Assembly (NCBI GenBank): GCA_029261035.1
Contig: JAJDCD010000004.1
Coordinates: 4,765 to 68,764 of the forward strand
DNA: 64,000 nucleotides
Direction: 5' to 3'
Source of the DNA: Candidatus Omnitrophota bacterium
GTDB taxonomy: Bacteria; Omnitrophota; Omnitrophia; Omnitrophales; JACROU01
Shown: piece after piece, positions 52,885 to 64,000 of the stretch
How positions within the stretch are numbered: position 1 is the first letter of the stretch
How the letters are laid out: each line of letters begins with the position of its first letter
Notes under the pieces: model-generated
Seen by the model: only the letters and a program-made list of their open reading frames with translations
Databases searched by the model: none
What the model was told of the DNA's origin: nothing
Translations under genes and position numbers: made by a program

Positions 52885-53199
52885 TTATTTAGATTTTCTG
52901 AAATATGTAACTACGTCAAGGATGAATCCAAGAAAAAAACCGCTAATGCTATAAATCAAAATTGTAACTATACAGCTAACCCAAAAAAACATGCGTGGGG
53001 AAAGAAACTCATAAAAGCCCATCAACTTTGACAATTCAAACCCCAAAGACCAATGCACATATGTAAATGGAAAAGCAAAAATTAGATACGGTGCTGCAGA
53101 ATGAGGACTATAGACAGAAATCAATTGATGTATAATGAAAAAAAACAAAACAAACAGTGTAAAAACAATAGTCGATAAAAATGAAAGTTTGAACTTCAC
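52885..53199 (-). CDS. small polytopic membrane protein directly downstream of giant 3 (candidate immunity/accessory protein)
   Basis: 104 aa, ~3 TM helices; GTG start overlaps the giant-3 stop codon (translational coupling geometry); hydrophobic aromatic-rich composition. Confidence 0.4.
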   Translation of the reverse strand: MKFKLSFLSTIVFTLFVLFFFIIHQLISVYSPHSAAPYLIFAFPFTYVHWSLGFELSKLMGFYEFLSPRMFFWVSCIVTILIYSISGFFLGFILDVVTYFRKSK

Positions 53200-62100: not shown

Positions 62101-64000
62101 ACACGTCCGTCAGATAAATAGCGAAGCGTATAATCAGAAAAATTTGTTTCTCCCTGAGAAATCAACTCTATCTCTGGAGGTGTGGTATCTAACGTAATCC
62201 AAAATTCAGCAGAGGTCATTTGACCCAATTCATCCTGTACATAAAACTGAACTCGATTATCCCCTTCTTGAAGTGTGTATGTTTCTTCAAATAAATGGCC
62301 ATTCACTTCATAACGCAAGGTATAACTCTCTTCATTGGTCAATGAAGAAGAAAGTAAATCAGCAACTGGAGGCTCCGGAGGGTTTCTAAATATAATCGCG
62401 TTATTTAACAAAGGTAAAATATCATCTCCTTCATGTCCTGACTGAACAATCACCTCTGTTTGAGAAACATACCCCTCTGGATAAGGCACATATGCTGAAG
62501 ATACAGTTAAACCTGTTTCATCCTGTAACTCTCCTGATAAATTAACTTGATAATTAATAATCTCTGGGCCTGGAATGCCACCGTTATAACCATTAACACG
62601 AATATCCAACATACCACCCACGTGGCGCATACTTCCATCGGGATAAATCCAACCTATTTGTTCATAGCTCTCTCCGCTATCTCCTTCATTTCTAAAGCCA
62701 GCAATCCAATTAGATCCATTACCAAAGGTACTTAAATCGGTGTCAAATACGAACCAATAATTCTGATTCGCTTCTATCGTGATTTCTTCTTCAAAGCTAA
62801 GTTCTGCCCAACCAGCATTAGCATGACCACTTGAAGTTCTTAAAGTAAGCTCCGAGACATCCCTCTCTTCGGAATGAGCAATCAACTCTCCTAGTTGTCC
62901 ATTTTGATTTGTATATATTTTTGCCCTCATTACTCCTTGAGGTTCACGCGTCCTTCTCATCCAAAACTCCAATGAAGACACAGCCATATCCGTACCGAAC
63001 TGAACACTTTGCGCCATCCCTGTATAGTTTTGGTTACTACCAATTTCAAAAGCTTGAGACCCCTCTGAGTAACGTTCGTAAAGAACTTCTTTAGGGGGCA
63101 AAGGAATCTCATCCCCTACCTGCACTGTCAATTGATTTACTTGGTTAGAATCATTGAAAATCCTCGAGAAAAATAAAGGCAAATCGGAAGCTCTTAAATC
63201 TTTAGTGATAAAACCATTGGTGTACTCCCGAATTCTTCCACTTGGAGAGTAAATTCCTGTTACTTCGCCTTCATTAACTTCAATGCGTTCACCATTGTTT
63301 AATAGGACTGATCCAGAAATAAGTACTCCTGAATCAGACAATTGAATATTTTCAAAAATAATTCCTTGGCTTTCCGCCCCCACAATTATTCCATTTCTAT
63401 ACTTTAAAATAGTTCCATCTTCTAGCATAGGTTGAAAATCAATCACAAACTCAGATTCTGTATTACCCCACTCGTTTTCAAAGTTTCTTAGAATTGTATT
63501 GCGACCTGCTCTTAAATATACATTCTCACGCTGAATCTCACCATCCACCAAATAAGCAATCTCATATTCACTATTATTAGAAATTTCTGCTGAAACTAAA
63601 TTAACTTTTGGAGGAAATGTGTCTGAAAAAACACTCCATTCCATTTGAACGACTCGCCCCATAGAATCTGTATAGCGAATAGGGACACTGTTATCGCCTA
63701 CTTCTAACAGCATGCTTTGCTGAAACAATTGACCCTCCACTTCATATGTCAGTTGATAATCTCGATAATCCACATTAGCTGCCGAAGTTAACTGAAATGA
63801 AACATTATTTAGTTCTTTATACAGCTCAACTAAATTTTCTAGAGAATGTGTCAACGTTTTCTTCTTGGTAAAACCAACTTTTTCTGGAATCGTGGGCAAT
63901 GTACTATTGACTCCATTTTCATCTAAAACAAAGCCTGCAGAATCCACATCGTATTTATCTCTTTCAGGCCCTGGCACACCCCCCTCATATCCATTAATCC
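53199..64000 (-). CDS. giant (>3600 aa, 5-prime end beyond window) Ig-like / FG-GAP (integrin-like) / YD-RHS-repeat protein with Gly-rich hydrophobic region and distinct C-terminal domain; Tc-toxin/teneurin-like
   Basis: ORF open to the window edge. Bacterial Ig-like repeats (TPPEIELISQGETNFSDYTLRYLSDGRV..). Six FG-GAP-type repeats (FMDINGDGLPDR...FNNGQGF) at ~58600-59850. YD repeats (SYDESGNL, YQYDEHGKL, YEYDSEGNP) at ~57000-58100. Coiled coil, Gly/Ala/Ser-rich hydrophobic stretch (~54500-55560), ~400-aa unique C-terminal domain. Confidence 0.75.
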   Translation of the reverse strand, partial: INGYEGGVPGPERDKYDVDSAGFVLDENGVNSTLPTIPEKVGFTKKKTLTHSLENLVELYKELNNVSFQLTSAANVDYRDYQLTYEVEGQLFQQSMLLEVGDNSVPIRYTDSMGRVVQMEWSVFSDTFPPKVNLVSAEISNNSEYEIAYLVDGEIQRENVYLRAGRNTILRNFENEWGNTESEFVIDFQPMLEDGTILKYRNGIIVGAESQGIIFENIQLSDSGVLISGSVLLNNGERIEVNEGEVTGIYSPSGRIREYTNGFITKDLRASDLPLFFSRIFNDSNQVNQLTVQVGDEIPLPPKEVLYERYSEGSQAFEIGSNQNYTGMAQSVQFGTDMAVSSLEFWMRRTREPQGVMRAKIYTNQNGQLGELIAHSEERDVSELTLRTSSGHANAGWAELSFEEEITIEANQNYWFVFDTDLSTFGNGSNWIAGFRNEGDSGESYEQIGWIYPDGSMRHVGGMLDIRVNGYNGGIPGPEIINYQVNLSGELQDETGLTVSSAYVPYPEGYVSQTEVIVQSGHEGDDILPLLNNAIIFRNPPEPPVADLLSSSLTNEESYTLRYEVNGHLFEETYTLQEGDNRVQFYVQDELGQMTSAEFWITLDTTPPEIELISQGETNFSDYTLRYLSDGRVIEETLQLSSGENQIVRESRDAAGNVSIKTFLISYHPFFQEQLSVYDAENHLLSIQDPMTGVEIFYSPSEPYDIQIKNSDGSVNEVLSFEILKKNLSESLVVTLENGLEALYQSGDLIGFRTEDGMELQDVVLDGEGNVETANIFYANGRVDFIRYGVILRTLDPQGNIRDFSLSQKPVRDIQNSEVSHYFYILNGDESLKEVKVEQPDGSILLYDDAGVLERIDNSNGAYSELSSGILTHLQTEEGKQFVYTQEQVVEDGEIFIKSELNLQQSDAPLDKTPVETFYHLSGQLAKVKLWDGSEVQFSEGLPNDIVDSNGNRTTLSYLENQGLLSGLILNQNGTQFKYNEKGSLSAIESFSGTLEIDGDEVSRVFLPDGTVIENLIQDSSTFEITDGVITSPDGTIRTFEGGVLTKIETVSGEVYETQSENQGFVSYLKELNFQDGTQALFNQGVLSQIQNQDLSLFTELQVGSDGRLGFAKETLQDGEEKFYEEGVLKYRVLDDGTRIDYEEGLAFQLITPENQIFEFKYQRNTQNEIIAFRLENENKVMSYGIAEDNQMVLQSVRNHNLVAFIENGVIQSVKSHFGRIENPVFDSSGNLVSGELIRIDGAQVSIENGVIQQTVLSNGDRIVYGEDRIDSIETEFGLIQLIYSEHGIEVEYDESGEIHRASMALFLLNPDRERERQIILSEPLINDLSQKRQTQVQFDTQSAIQLDLTVQDEERGEVYRFNSNYRPVWNNVVETDRQDGFIRRMESLTAWDSLPAIHSDFMDINGDGLPDRIFFDPEQPDRYDVQLNNGQGFDDLIQWGNVQTDLTGFFSQYGDRLAFGALSSFEGRHPHRLSEFMDINGDGLPDRVMMGYYGQEDWVVQFNNGQGFEDPQLWEGAFPLARIWSFQAFYASEVRNDEQNKEVQELMADMVDMNGDGLADRVLIAPREPYDYWLVQFNNGSGFDFPVVWDNVVNEFYYQEHDLDGSLSVTTEQKAALLSTLQDMNGDGRTDRVFNQWNDVSDPTLGMEWYVQINNGEGFDDSILWDDDVRLLDGVAEIDVASSIRYVENNRQVWVESMDINGDGLIDRITVDQTVSSENSPTFWWVELNNGSGFNEAVQWQGVENYGSETIGIRADNELWHSTLSTNNGIPLIQNELIDINGDSLVDRIIYQPGNEEWLVQFNNGNGFEPLRAMHMDSLIARSEGNGEDYEYLHVSLKQEDLMSSELETVIVTVGDAEFTLNNVGNEWKDFYLPLDSVTVSDTVTVNSLNSSNNEILVDNITWVNQRKVSASDWMTDLFITQNQIPSITQSVNLSLIPQSVNDRDELIVQKDLSLVHESEILKARTVLRYSDEGKATQVETADGRVAEISNGNITQIRHQDGSILELSYDESGNLSEGANFNHFNETPDALVEYAYGRIREVSRENKPSLNYSYEFDALGREITVIEDPETGIKERYLDSLLMSTVKPNGIETVYQYDEHGKLTSSSLQYKGSVKQVFQHERVEDREVVIQSNGIREEYSEEGALLFHTLPNGLRYQHEYVYPDKVIDTVSLNAEGFEEHQVEIVQDTSKEKIHRVKLIEKAINPNAPKASYEEGVLTQLILEDDSQIFWEEIEGNQKALIVYPDGIEIEYENGVPKQLRSTTGLTKDFNSKSAVDALDFHYQEAVNAYQLIQSKQLEYQLDPETSVLGEFTLEGEPITEWKADNTVSLYDDNGLLEEVVDGEGNTQIQYEYDSEGNPAKITMVQTRAALEREISLINTDIEIKRAEALAVVAEREFIVHETIEGSYEANLERLIRERDRLLGQRNEVSSIEIPKRAGKEVKSQIADVLGSIDSQVATVEQMIFDLAETRSQALRDLDQNVATAYDDIQLEVDTANLQVLQDKEQIEHEILLQELTPIILHQFRTQLGRDPSQDEINYWISQVPGSLTKSEVPGTLATILLNSTERADRTLEVNSIKDSVRTLIETYLNGTEGDKENILSDLNLTSEEALSLTEGEAESILEYLDNQDLHFGQSAFLALEALLEDSVIASNDNGAWQSPDRVTLARDLIVMDILKGILTPLEEGDLVISLFSMKRYAERVLSSSPSSEGEDRGEGVHALNLNYESLRAMYQEACSEQGPDCEMSVIAHIDGNHYIELTQVTEEGIVYRNPGHGPEDNLEIVTLTKDEFLTDWEGVVLSTRAPPSENQNNEIRELTEIEQTQIRGAFFGITAIVLAGLVFGAISALANFAFSLISTGSFKQAFNSTVNLISSIASLDLISAVGIFKDNFFNGLDKIASGIGKVIPFLGKIGHKVIRGAKKVADTLYDNVLNTKVFRTVFDSIKIVGGIVAAPFSAGASLALVGNGVNGILSRHTDLNPTAISLISSGASLFSGFGLGGFDLSGSLDFLQSGTAKNILGDIAITGLDALGASSELTSLLSIPIRVTISGGIQGIANPSAGLFSSIKDALFNTQTAAGLVSVGANIGLNRAGAPLEVGGLVSGLLGQLLVNNASIPNADQTDANQLGSSLFQRITNTAQTLASKVINGAQNAISFGVEVLQKGFDKTVEFFGGLFSRETQEVLHEANSFTGASGWQKIGSLTDQNGFVTTIYSNNSGDTINVESVLGSNNITITKNIKGKISTEIYENVKRTSTGLFSIGNVAFAEQISEGTTLNYSYQNNELSQIQVQGDQGYNFLTIEPLNSGVVGVGGGSEIKDGKIYLLDKTIGLEIESGNWSGTTVENITTILNALNHGVSTQILNSPGVIGVVEPVFNQMLPVIYNQLDESAYDSIVGRKKHDFWTPEEVMFNVLELENFDVSSPEMHPEIYTVEQYLDVSNVEMQNQIRDTVGEDNWSIINTPRNREEFVRVLEKYPNSKFYLYSGNTSGLLEHMIHKEGITNSRDRNSLMLGGDHRPFTDLNGQDIVMRSIEGIALDVQETGYLMNGLKEFSSQVSQVRIGTGPHFHNILDNALFFHIDDYPNNSVNNIIGHQIEVRFAGGDA

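Follow-up and report, generated by a model that had tools for sequence, protein, structure and literature searches.

A candidate polymorphic toxin with a C39-like domain and a membrane module in a giant RHS-repeat protein of Candidatus Omnitrophota

RHS polymorphic toxins of the TcdB/TcaC type are built of a signal peptide, an integrin-like propeller, RHS repeats, a releasing peptidase, a pre-toxin segment and a variable toxin tip, and they come with an immunity gene and with orphan cassettes (PMC3482391). In the PrsW-type polymorphic toxins the RHS repeats are followed by a peptidase and a membrane-embedded segment right before the toxin, for which simultaneous extrusion and processing has been proposed (PMC3482391). 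Here we describe a giant gene with RHS repeats on the minus strand of a 64,000-nt stretch of a Candidatus Omnitrophota bacterium genome (contig JAJDCD010000004.1; hereafter the window, meaning the whole stretch that was analysed). We hold it to be somewhat probable that its product is a polymorphic toxin of a rare family, exported by Sec and exposed on the surface, that carries an unusual module for processing and translocation.

The giant protein resembles the TcdB/TcaC-type toxins in its signal peptide, propeller, RHS repeats, peptidase, pre-toxin segment, variable tip and adjacent partner gene, and orphan cassettes occur in its family. Unlike them, it lacks both SpvB and the aspartyl protease motif of the RHS core, it has a C39-like peptidase with a serine and not one of the HINT, ZU5 or caspase kind, and a hydrophobic module with several transmembrane (TM) segments lies between peptidase and toxin. 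A peptidase and a membrane segment between RHS repeats and tip are also found in the PrsW-type toxins; however, PrsW is an 8-TM intramembrane metalloprotease, whereas the giant protein has a soluble papain-fold domain before unrelated TM segments and no PrsW match. With the PCAT/AMS exporters (ComA, LahT, CvaB) and their bacteriocins and microcins with double-glycine leaders it has in common the C39 fold, the His-Asp/Asn pair at +16 and a leader-like LxxxE...[IV]xG[GAS] motif with a hydrophobic Gly-rich peptide after it, but enzyme, site and cargo are here in one polypeptide, Ser replaces Cys, ABC_membrane and ATPase domains are missing and the domain is probably extracytoplasmic. TcB-TcC and the Rhs effectors of type VI secretion systems likewise have YD/RHS repeats with an inserted six-bladed propeller; the giant protein differs from them in lacking the autoprotease motif and SpvB and in a cargo too large for the cocoon. 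Finally, the available parts of two surveys of Omnitrophota giant proteins (bioRxiv 10.1101/2023.11.21.568195; 10.64898/2026.06.07.730766) describe proteins that come from the phylum of the relatives, are likewise very large and have C39 domains and TM segments close to their C-termini, but those are at least 10,000 amino acids (aa) long, with dockerin, TSP3 or SecA content (West-Roberts et al. 2023; 2026 preprint). Neither source, in the same parts, mentions an RHS/FG-GAP family whose tips are polymorphic, or its partner genes, or a site of the double-glycine type.

A preliminary description of the window, made from the letters alone, had placed a giant gene at 53199-64000. The gene is there, and it runs past the edge of the window. 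Precisely, a single open reading frame (ORF) of 3592 codons extends over 53199..63977 (-) from a GTG at 63977, and its frame is still open at base 64000. An exhaustive HMMER search among 1.84 billion representative proteins retrieved the full product, P0002, which is 3,997 aa long and 100% identical over all 3592 residues of the window; hence the window is without the first 405 codons of the gene. Residue numbers are counted below from the GTG at 63977 (ORF aa) and not from the start of P0002. The N-terminus, which lies upstream of the window and was read from P0002, holds a signal-peptide-like hydrophobic stretch.

Exchange of tips and partner genes in the family

The family is rare, with about a dozen relatives, mostly in metagenome-assembled genomes (MAGs) of Omnitrophota. 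P0001 was found by a word-indexed search, seven loci were found in GTDB (one genome per species), six in JGI/ENA metagenomes and one via P0003; the named sources include two Candidatus Omnitrophica MAGs and, for two remote matches, Clostridia MAGs. All Omnitrophota-type relatives can be aligned with the giant protein, with ~30% identity from the YD/propeller region to the end of the hydrophobic region, and one relative carries nine laminin-G domains in its body. The conserved body comprises a signal-like N-terminus, domains of the Ig-like and beta-sandwich kinds, YD-like repeats, the six-bladed FG-GAP propeller, which stands before a second RHS block, and the helical linker; conserved after it are the C39-like domain, the double-glycine-like motif, the hydrophobic region and the beta-rich pre-toxin segment. 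In L001 (6571-6598) and L018 (5001-5061) the giant gene was called as two overlapping ORFs in different frames, at different places, possibly because of a frameshift or a faulty assembly, or because the gene is really interrupted.

Up to aa ~3278 the body is common to the relatives, whereas the C-terminal domains beyond differ, and two loci show a sharp break in identity at the junction. This supports the preliminary description, in which the architecture had been likened to RHS polymorphic toxins with a variable C-terminal domain; the class is that of RHS proteins with an integrin-like propeller. At least four tip types are found on one chassis. Type A (L001, L002, L004/L012, L013/L014 and L016) has an invariant Ser (GYSGGF), Asp and His in the order of alpha/beta-hydrolases, and its partner is a signal-anchored protein. 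In L002, L004/L012 and L014, and beside type A remnants in L001, these partners are homologous TPR proteins ending in ...GRATQALIQSD[HY]FPW; the partner in L016, of 208 aa, is unrelated to them. Type B (L015 and an orphan in L001) is a second GxSxG-type domain, with a four-TM ORF of 112 or 135 aa as partner. Type C (L011 and P0003) matches Peptidase_C92 (YiiX) with 31 bits (cut-off 27) and is accompanied by a 128-aa single-TM ORF in L011 and by a 109-aa multi-TM ORF in L018. The fourth type is the His/Asp-rich tip found only in the window, whose partner is a membrane ORF of 104 aa. Searches of PDB with the three other tip types gave no meaningful match.

Each tip has its own downstream gene, whose start usually overlaps the stop of the giant gene. 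In the comparison of L014 with L012, identity is 85-97% in the hydrophobic and beta-rich regions and 25-35% after the position equivalent to aa ~3278, and the downstream partner genes are 29% identical. Co-variation of tip and partner was seen in five cases, all of them type A tips with partners of the TPR type. In L001, moreover, there are orphan tips that keep ~50 aa of pre-junction homology, each with a partner (one orphan tip, between Y1 transposase genes, has its own 4-TM ORF), interleaved with three Y1 (IS200-like) transposase genes at 11386-11973, 13572-14171 and 15443-16030. Y1 genes (PF01797) also stand directly 3' of the tip/partner pair in L011 (12531-13760), L015 (12339-12701), L016 (12899-13510) and L018 (7183-7800), which with L001 makes five loci. 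The Y1 transposase-type genes of the relatives are homologous to each other, with 30-53% identity, and they may drive the exchange of cassettes. A fixed junction, co-varying partners and orphan cassettes are the defining features of polymorphic toxins (PMC3482391).

A few genes downstream of type A loci we also observed a lipoprotein of ~265-287 aa with an H-E-x-G-H-A-x-D motif (L002 15575-16372, L004 8422-9285, L001 18842-19687; 37-45% identity), which may be an accessory or a second immunity protein.

The same data bear on a different explanation, namely that the protein is a C-terminally anchored giant adhesin or surface enzyme and not a toxin. The hydrophobic region would then be a stop-transfer anchor in the producer, the C39-like domain would shed or mature the exposed part, the C-terminal domain would be an envelope enzyme for the cell's own use or for feeding on prey polymers, and the small ORF would encode a membrane partner. 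This agrees with the conservation of the TM-like segments in all relatives, with a Lys/Arg-rich loop between them that resembles a cytoplasmic loop, with the place of the giant gene among core housekeeping genes and with what the available part of a survey of Omnitrophota giant proteins reports, namely C39 domains and TM anchors near the C-termini of proteins read as machines of the cell surface that serve to attach and to degrade cell walls (bioRxiv 10.1101/2023.11.21.568195). We nevertheless consider it unlikely, because loci that are otherwise ~90% identical lose this identity abruptly at a single junction, the neighbouring gene diversifies along with the tip, and orphan tip/partner cassettes adjoin transposases; these three are hallmarks of conflict systems and not of housekeeping enzymes. 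The two models are compatible in one respect, since the hydrophobic region could anchor the protein first and translocate later.

The partner genes bear on a further possibility, in which the conserved hydrophobic Gly/Ala/Ser-rich segment is itself the toxic part, a microcin-like pore former freed by the C39-like domain, while the tip would serve in targeting or receptor binding and the small ORF would protect from the pore. Here a double-glycine-type site is indeed followed by a hydrophobic, acid-poor segment, and in four loci the partner is a small multi-TM protein; class II microcins and the 3-4-TM immunity proteins of pore-forming colicins have such features. However, the hydrophobic region is conserved and the downstream genes are not, whereas a conserved pore would need an immunity gene that is conserved as well. 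Several partners are soluble proteins of the TPR type with a signal anchor, and the tips of the relatives carry hydrolase catalytic motifs, with one C92 amidase match, which makes a toxic pore quite improbable.

The C39-like domain, the junction motif and the hydrophobic region

Beyond what the preliminary description had reported, we found the overrun of the window by the gene, a helical linker of ~150 aa, an LGRDPS motif, a C39-like domain and a double-glycine-like motif at the junction with the hydrophobic region. The coordinates of all features are given in Table 1.

Table 1. Features of the giant gene and of the sequence downstream of it; residues are ORF aa
Feature	Position	Strand	Residues	Basis or remark
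3' 10.8 kb of giant gene	53199..64000	-		ORF call and 100% match to P0002
Second copy of internally duplicated ~218-aa beta domain	62460..63113	-	289-506	Weak DUF4082 match
Ig-like domains	61998..62360	-	~540-660	Big_13 and Glucodextran_B matches
Degenerate YD-like beta-repeat region	59988..61991	-	663-1330	Weak RHS_repeat/MORN_2 matches
Six-bladed FG-GAP-type propeller	58515..59795	-	1395-1821	
RHS/YD repeats, ending ...YEYDSEGNPAKITMV	56910..58130	-	1950-2356	Without RHS core protease motif
Charged helical (coiled-coil-like) linker	56451..56909	-	2357-2509	Judged by eye; conserved in relatives
LGRDPS motif, helical region, Peptidase_C39-like domain	55578..56435	-	2515-2800	
Ser2628 (LHFGQSAF), at the Cys position	Codon 56094-56096	-	2628	Alignment
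His2747	55737-55739	-	2747	Alignment
Asn2763, +16 from His2747	55689-55691	-	2763	Alignment
Double-glycine-type leader-like motif LTEIEQTQIRGA	55521..55556	-	2808-2819	
Hydrophobic, acid-poor Gly/Ala/Ser/Leu-rich region	54498..55520	-	2820-3160	
Conserved beta-rich 'pre-toxin' segment beginning FFGGLFSRETQE	54144..54497	-	3161-3278	
Variable C-terminal domain (tip)	53202..54143	-	3279-3592	No family assignment
His/Asp-rich terminal subdomain of tip	53223..53579	-	3467-3585	Homologous to stand-alone P0004
GGAGG Shine-Dalgarno, 9 nt before GTG of small ORF	53209..53213	-		Sequence
104-aa membrane ORF, candidate immunity protein	52885..53199	-		GTG overlaps TAG of giant gene by one base (TAGTG)
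19-bp-stem hairpin between small ORF and convergent PEGA-domain gene	52780..52820			Sequence

The copy in the window matches Peptidase_C39 (PF03412) marginally, with 22.5 bits in a 316-aa piece (cut-off 22) and 21.6 bits in another scan; the family is matched by nine of 11 relatives, with a best E-value of 6.2e-12. In the alignment, the nucleophile column is Ser in every Omnitrophota-type member and Cys solely in the Clostridia relative L007. His2747 is invariant among the aligned relatives, and Asp or Asn stands at His+16 in most of them (it is missing in 2/11), Asn in the window copy and Asp in most relatives. The same +16 spacing is found between His101 and Asp117 of LahT (PMC6363468). Since a conserved pair of Cys stands right before the His strand in a protein otherwise nearly free of Cys, a disulfide is probable and the domain is probably outside the cytoplasm; such a location would also account for the replacement of the thiol nucleophile by Ser. 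With the C39 region as query, a word-indexed search of proteins had no match, a negative of little reliability as the same search also missed the known relative P0001, and the C39 profile had no meaningful match in PDB. We consider the C39-like domain more likely to be the releasing element than an RHS core protease.

Immediately after this domain and immediately before the first TM segment, a junction motif of the form L-x3-[EQ]-x-M-x-[IV]-R-G-[AGS] / F-F is found in all 12 sequences, one of which has a true Gly-Gly. Published double-glycine leaders end in GG, GA or GS and carry Leu(-12), Glu(-8) and Leu(-7), and at -4 a hydrophobic residue that docks in the groove of C39 (PMC6363468); the junction motif agrees with L(-12), E(-8), I/V(-4) and G(-2)[GAS](-1) of this consensus. 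We propose a predicted cut after Ala2819, which would give a 773-aa C-terminal fragment starting with FFGITAIVLAGLVFG.

In the two Clostridia MAGs (L007 1910-5572 and L008 2903-4690) a C39 domain with the true Cys and the same ...IRGA motif stand between blocks of YD-like repeats. These remote relatives have no hydrophobic region, which suggests that the pair of protease and site may predate the membrane module.

The hydrophobic stretch rich in Gly, Ala and Ser, to which the preliminary description had drawn attention upstream of the C-terminus, proved to be a conserved module of the family. Over ORF aa 2816-3160 (345 aa) it holds 12.8% G, 11.3% A, 10.7% S and 1.2% E, versus 10.4% E elsewhere in the protein, and Leu and Ile are also abundant. 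It has three to four TM-like segments, kept in all relatives, and within it the motifs RHT[ND]L[SN]P and LxSIP[IV] are conserved. None of six members gave a Pfam match in this region, even at E<=10, and ABC_membrane, ATPase and PrsW were not found in it. A glycine zipper was considered and rejected: the density of small-xxx-small patterns is 0.111 versus 0.120 +/- 0.012 in shuffled sequences, and there is no GxxxGxxxG. The pre-toxin segment that comes next is common to P0003, L004 and other relatives.

Tip, downstream ORF, body and surroundings of this copy

The preliminary description had reported a C-terminus of ~400 aa without recognisable motifs. Its first ~120 aa (3161-3278) are conserved in the relatives, and the variable part is ORF aa 3279-3592 (~310 aa), which had no sequence match in Pfam, NCBIfam or PDB; a match to an adhesin domain, against which that description had advised a check, was not found either. 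The sole relative of the tip among the 1.84 billion representative proteins is P0004, a stand-alone protein of 128 aa on two short metagenome contigs, 38-42% identical to the terminal subdomain. The motifs common to both (GDHxPxxD, GxGxHFHNI[LV][DE], FHxDxYP and HxIE) suggest that this subdomain may bind a metal. Because it has a single remote relative in so large a set, we regard the tip as a candidate new effector domain. A search with a tip profile found only P0004 again, and a scan of viral contigs found nothing. Against PDB, the best match of the two-sequence tip profile was the prolyl 4-hydroxylase 6tp5, a weak one (E 0.014) over VRxGxGxHxH. Two fold assignments were tried, an M23/M15 LAS metallopeptidase (TGPHFH, Hx4D...HxH) and a cupin/2OG-oxygenase (HxHxxx[DE]...H; the 6tp5 match); both gave a loose motif fit only and were not confirmed.

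As for the ORF downstream of the giant gene, the preliminary description had called it a 104-aa protein with three TM segments that overlaps the giant's stop. The overlap of GTG and TAG is as described, but the protein has two strong hydrophobic segments and one weaker aromatic one, and not three clear TM segments. Its position, which had been said to fit a partner gene, is the slot occupied by the cognate partner genes in every relative, and analogous multi-TM ORFs of 109-135 aa, with overlapping or abutting starts, are present in L001, L015 and L018. The 104-aa ORF has no similarity to these multi-TM partner ORFs of other loci and belongs to no Pfam or NCBIfam family; its likeness to colicin/microcin-type immunity proteins is one of size and topology only. 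A check for co-occurrence of the tip and the small ORF elsewhere had also been advised, and none was seen: P0004 is followed by the gene of a different protein of 197 aa with a signal peptide. The hairpin beyond the small ORF is likely the end of the transcription unit. The product of the small ORF probably protects the producer.

It could also be that no immunity gene exists here and that the frame of the 104-aa ORF is open by chance, in a sequence rich in AT and Phe. In favour of this are its codon score of 0.066, versus 0.34 +/- 0.11 for genes, the failure to find a homologue and the missing Pfam or NCBIfam match. We judge a chance frame to be rather improbable, as GGAGG stands 9 nt upstream of a start that overlaps the stop, the in-frame codon score is far above that of the two off-frames (-0.56), the hairpin comes after this ORF and not after the giant gene, and L001, L015 and L018 have ORFs of the same position, size and type. 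From the other side, a lone plus-strand ORF of 138 aa (52362-52778, +) converges on the small ORF; it has a lipoprotein-like N-terminus and a weak PEGA match (21.6 bits, cut-off 20.8).

In the body of the protein, the duplicated beta domain is identical in 173/218 residues (79%) to its first copy, which lies mostly upstream of the window (P0002 aa 227-444 vs 694-911), and this suggests a recent tandem-like expansion of one domain. The Ig-like domains of the preliminary description are represented by weak matches only, Big_13 at 22.8 bits, under its cut-off, and Glucodextran_B at 32 bits (Pfam). The degenerate YD-like region is conserved in part in L001 and L002. The six FG-GAP repeats claimed earlier were all recovered, as six D[IM]NGD[GS]xxD...NNGxGF units at ORF aa 1397-1802; the blades sit between two YD regions, and Pfam matches there are FG-GAP_3 and TcdB_toxin_midN. 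The YD/RHS repeats are equally clear, with RHS_repeat (PF05593) at 57-70 bits (cut-off 22) and TIGR01643 at 35 bits (cut-off 15.8). Sequence and profile searches of PDB with the whole protein gave no meaningful match.

This order of domains recalls a BC component of a Tc toxin, with which the preliminary description had compared the architecture, or a classical Rhs protein. In such a mechanism the aspartyl protease of the RHS core would cleave off the C-terminal toxin, the YD/RHS repeats would close around it as a cocoon and the propeller would be the gate. A YD-like block, a propeller and an RHS block follow each other in TcB, too, and TcdB_toxin_midN (PF12256) scores 34.7 bits in a piece scan; however, the match covers just profile positions 25-53 of 181 (29/181), that is, one repeat motif. 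The core motif PxxxxDPxG[LW] was not found by regular expression anywhere in the full 3,997-aa protein, and SpvB has no match in the window part nor in the first 588 aa of P0002. After the last YD repeat there are still ~1,240 residues, comprising the helical linker, the peptidase-like domain and the TM segments, far beyond the capacity of a cocoon, and no TcA-like gene lies downstream (the upstream side is outside the window). A mechanism of this kind is therefore highly improbable, and the C39-like domain is the likelier releasing element of the proposed toxin.

The giant gene lies in core chromosome, with genes for LptF/G, RpoD, DnaG, DnaE, GuaA/B, two GroEL proteins, CoaX, BirA, Alr, TsaB/E and ThiL in the window. 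The GroEL (Cpn60) paralogues, both of 556 aa, are side by side at 19478-21148 (-) and 21667-23337 (-). Two other giant genes, 23642-37777 (-) of 4711 aa and 38107-45807 (-) of 2566 aa, are unrelated to the RHS giant gene. Their products resemble each other at the N-terminus (...[IV]xIQDAH....AQxNI..., both signal-like) and in the C-terminal ~250 aa ending in ...FNDQF[VM]QLM..LW.EFQGY. Nearly all long ORFs of the window are on the minus strand, GC skew is negative in 32/32 two-kb bins and G+C is 34-40%; the window is a long co-oriented stretch of one replichore.

Proposed mechanism and its meaning for the family

Because LptF/G are present in the window, we consider the organism a diderm. In the mechanism that we propose, the body of the exported protein would bind or engage another cell. 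The C39-like domain, with its Ser-His-Asn/Asp triad, would recognise the adjacent LxxxExxx[IV]RG[AGS] helix and cut after Gly-Ala2819, in cis; this would be the reaction carried out by bacteriocin and microcin exporters on double-glycine leaders, here built into one protein. The cut would free the 773-aa fragment, whose new N-terminus would be the microcin-like hydrophobic Gly/Ala/Ser-rich segment, and this segment could insert into the target membrane and take the tip across it or to it. The tip, in this copy, would be a new domain of ~310 aa ending in a His/Asp-rich, probably metal-dependent subdomain, and the translationally coupled 104-aa membrane ORF would encode its immunity protein. The steps from cleavage onward are those that we infer. 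Since the tips of the relatives look like hydrolases (two Ser-Asp-His types and a YiiX/C92 amidase) and their partners are signal-anchored or multi-TM proteins, the action would be at the envelope.

Several observations weigh against reading the protein as a polymorphic toxin that acts in this way. In the first place, a Sec-exported protein with TM-like segments would by default anchor in the producer's own membrane, and we identified no export route across the outer membrane and no secretion system adjacent within the window. With Ser as nucleophile in a cysteine-peptidase fold, the C39-like domain may be an inactive binding domain, of the kind that HlyB-type transporters have. The junction motif has no Leu(-7) but Met at -6; as its bare pattern is expected 0.14 times per protein by chance and occurs a second time at aa 1225, its weight lies in positional conservation alone. 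AlphaFold gave no confident structure for the C39-like and hydrophobic regions aligned with P0001 (predicted local distance difference test, pLDDT, 33.1) and, for the tip (aa 3290-3592 aligned with P0004), a model too poor for a fold search (pLDDT 35.6). The tip of the window has that one remote relative only, and the overlapping 197-aa signal-peptide ORF that follows P0004 is unrelated to the 104-aa ORF. The latter has no detected homologue and a codon score 2.5 standard deviations under that of typical genes. Lastly, the window holds no orphan cassette, no Y1 transposase and no TPR-type partner.

A larger claim can be made only tentatively, and we think it on the whole doubtful: that the C39-like Ser domain, the in-cis double-glycine-type site, the microcin-like segment and the pre-toxin together form a previously undescribed self-processing translocation device of predatory or episymbiotic Omnitrophota-type bacteria, which would push interchangeable envelope-degrading enzymes into neighbours, and that the tip has a toxin fold not seen before, dependent on metal, and an equally new immunity protein in the membrane. 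No description of a delivery cassette of this kind was found in the literature searched.

The Omnitrophota are uncultured bacteria; most are ultra-small, and they are suspected of living on other cells, a way of life for which their giant proteins are taken to be the tools. We know of no mechanism for any of these giant proteins. The family described here gives a concrete one that can be tested, with a cut site after Ala2819, the residues Ser2628, His2747 and Asn2763, a 773-aa fragment and interchangeable tips with their partners. If true, the known polymorphic toxins would gain a new module for release and translocation, and the family would be a case of a cysteine-peptidase fold re-tooled with a serine, plausibly for extracytoplasmic work.

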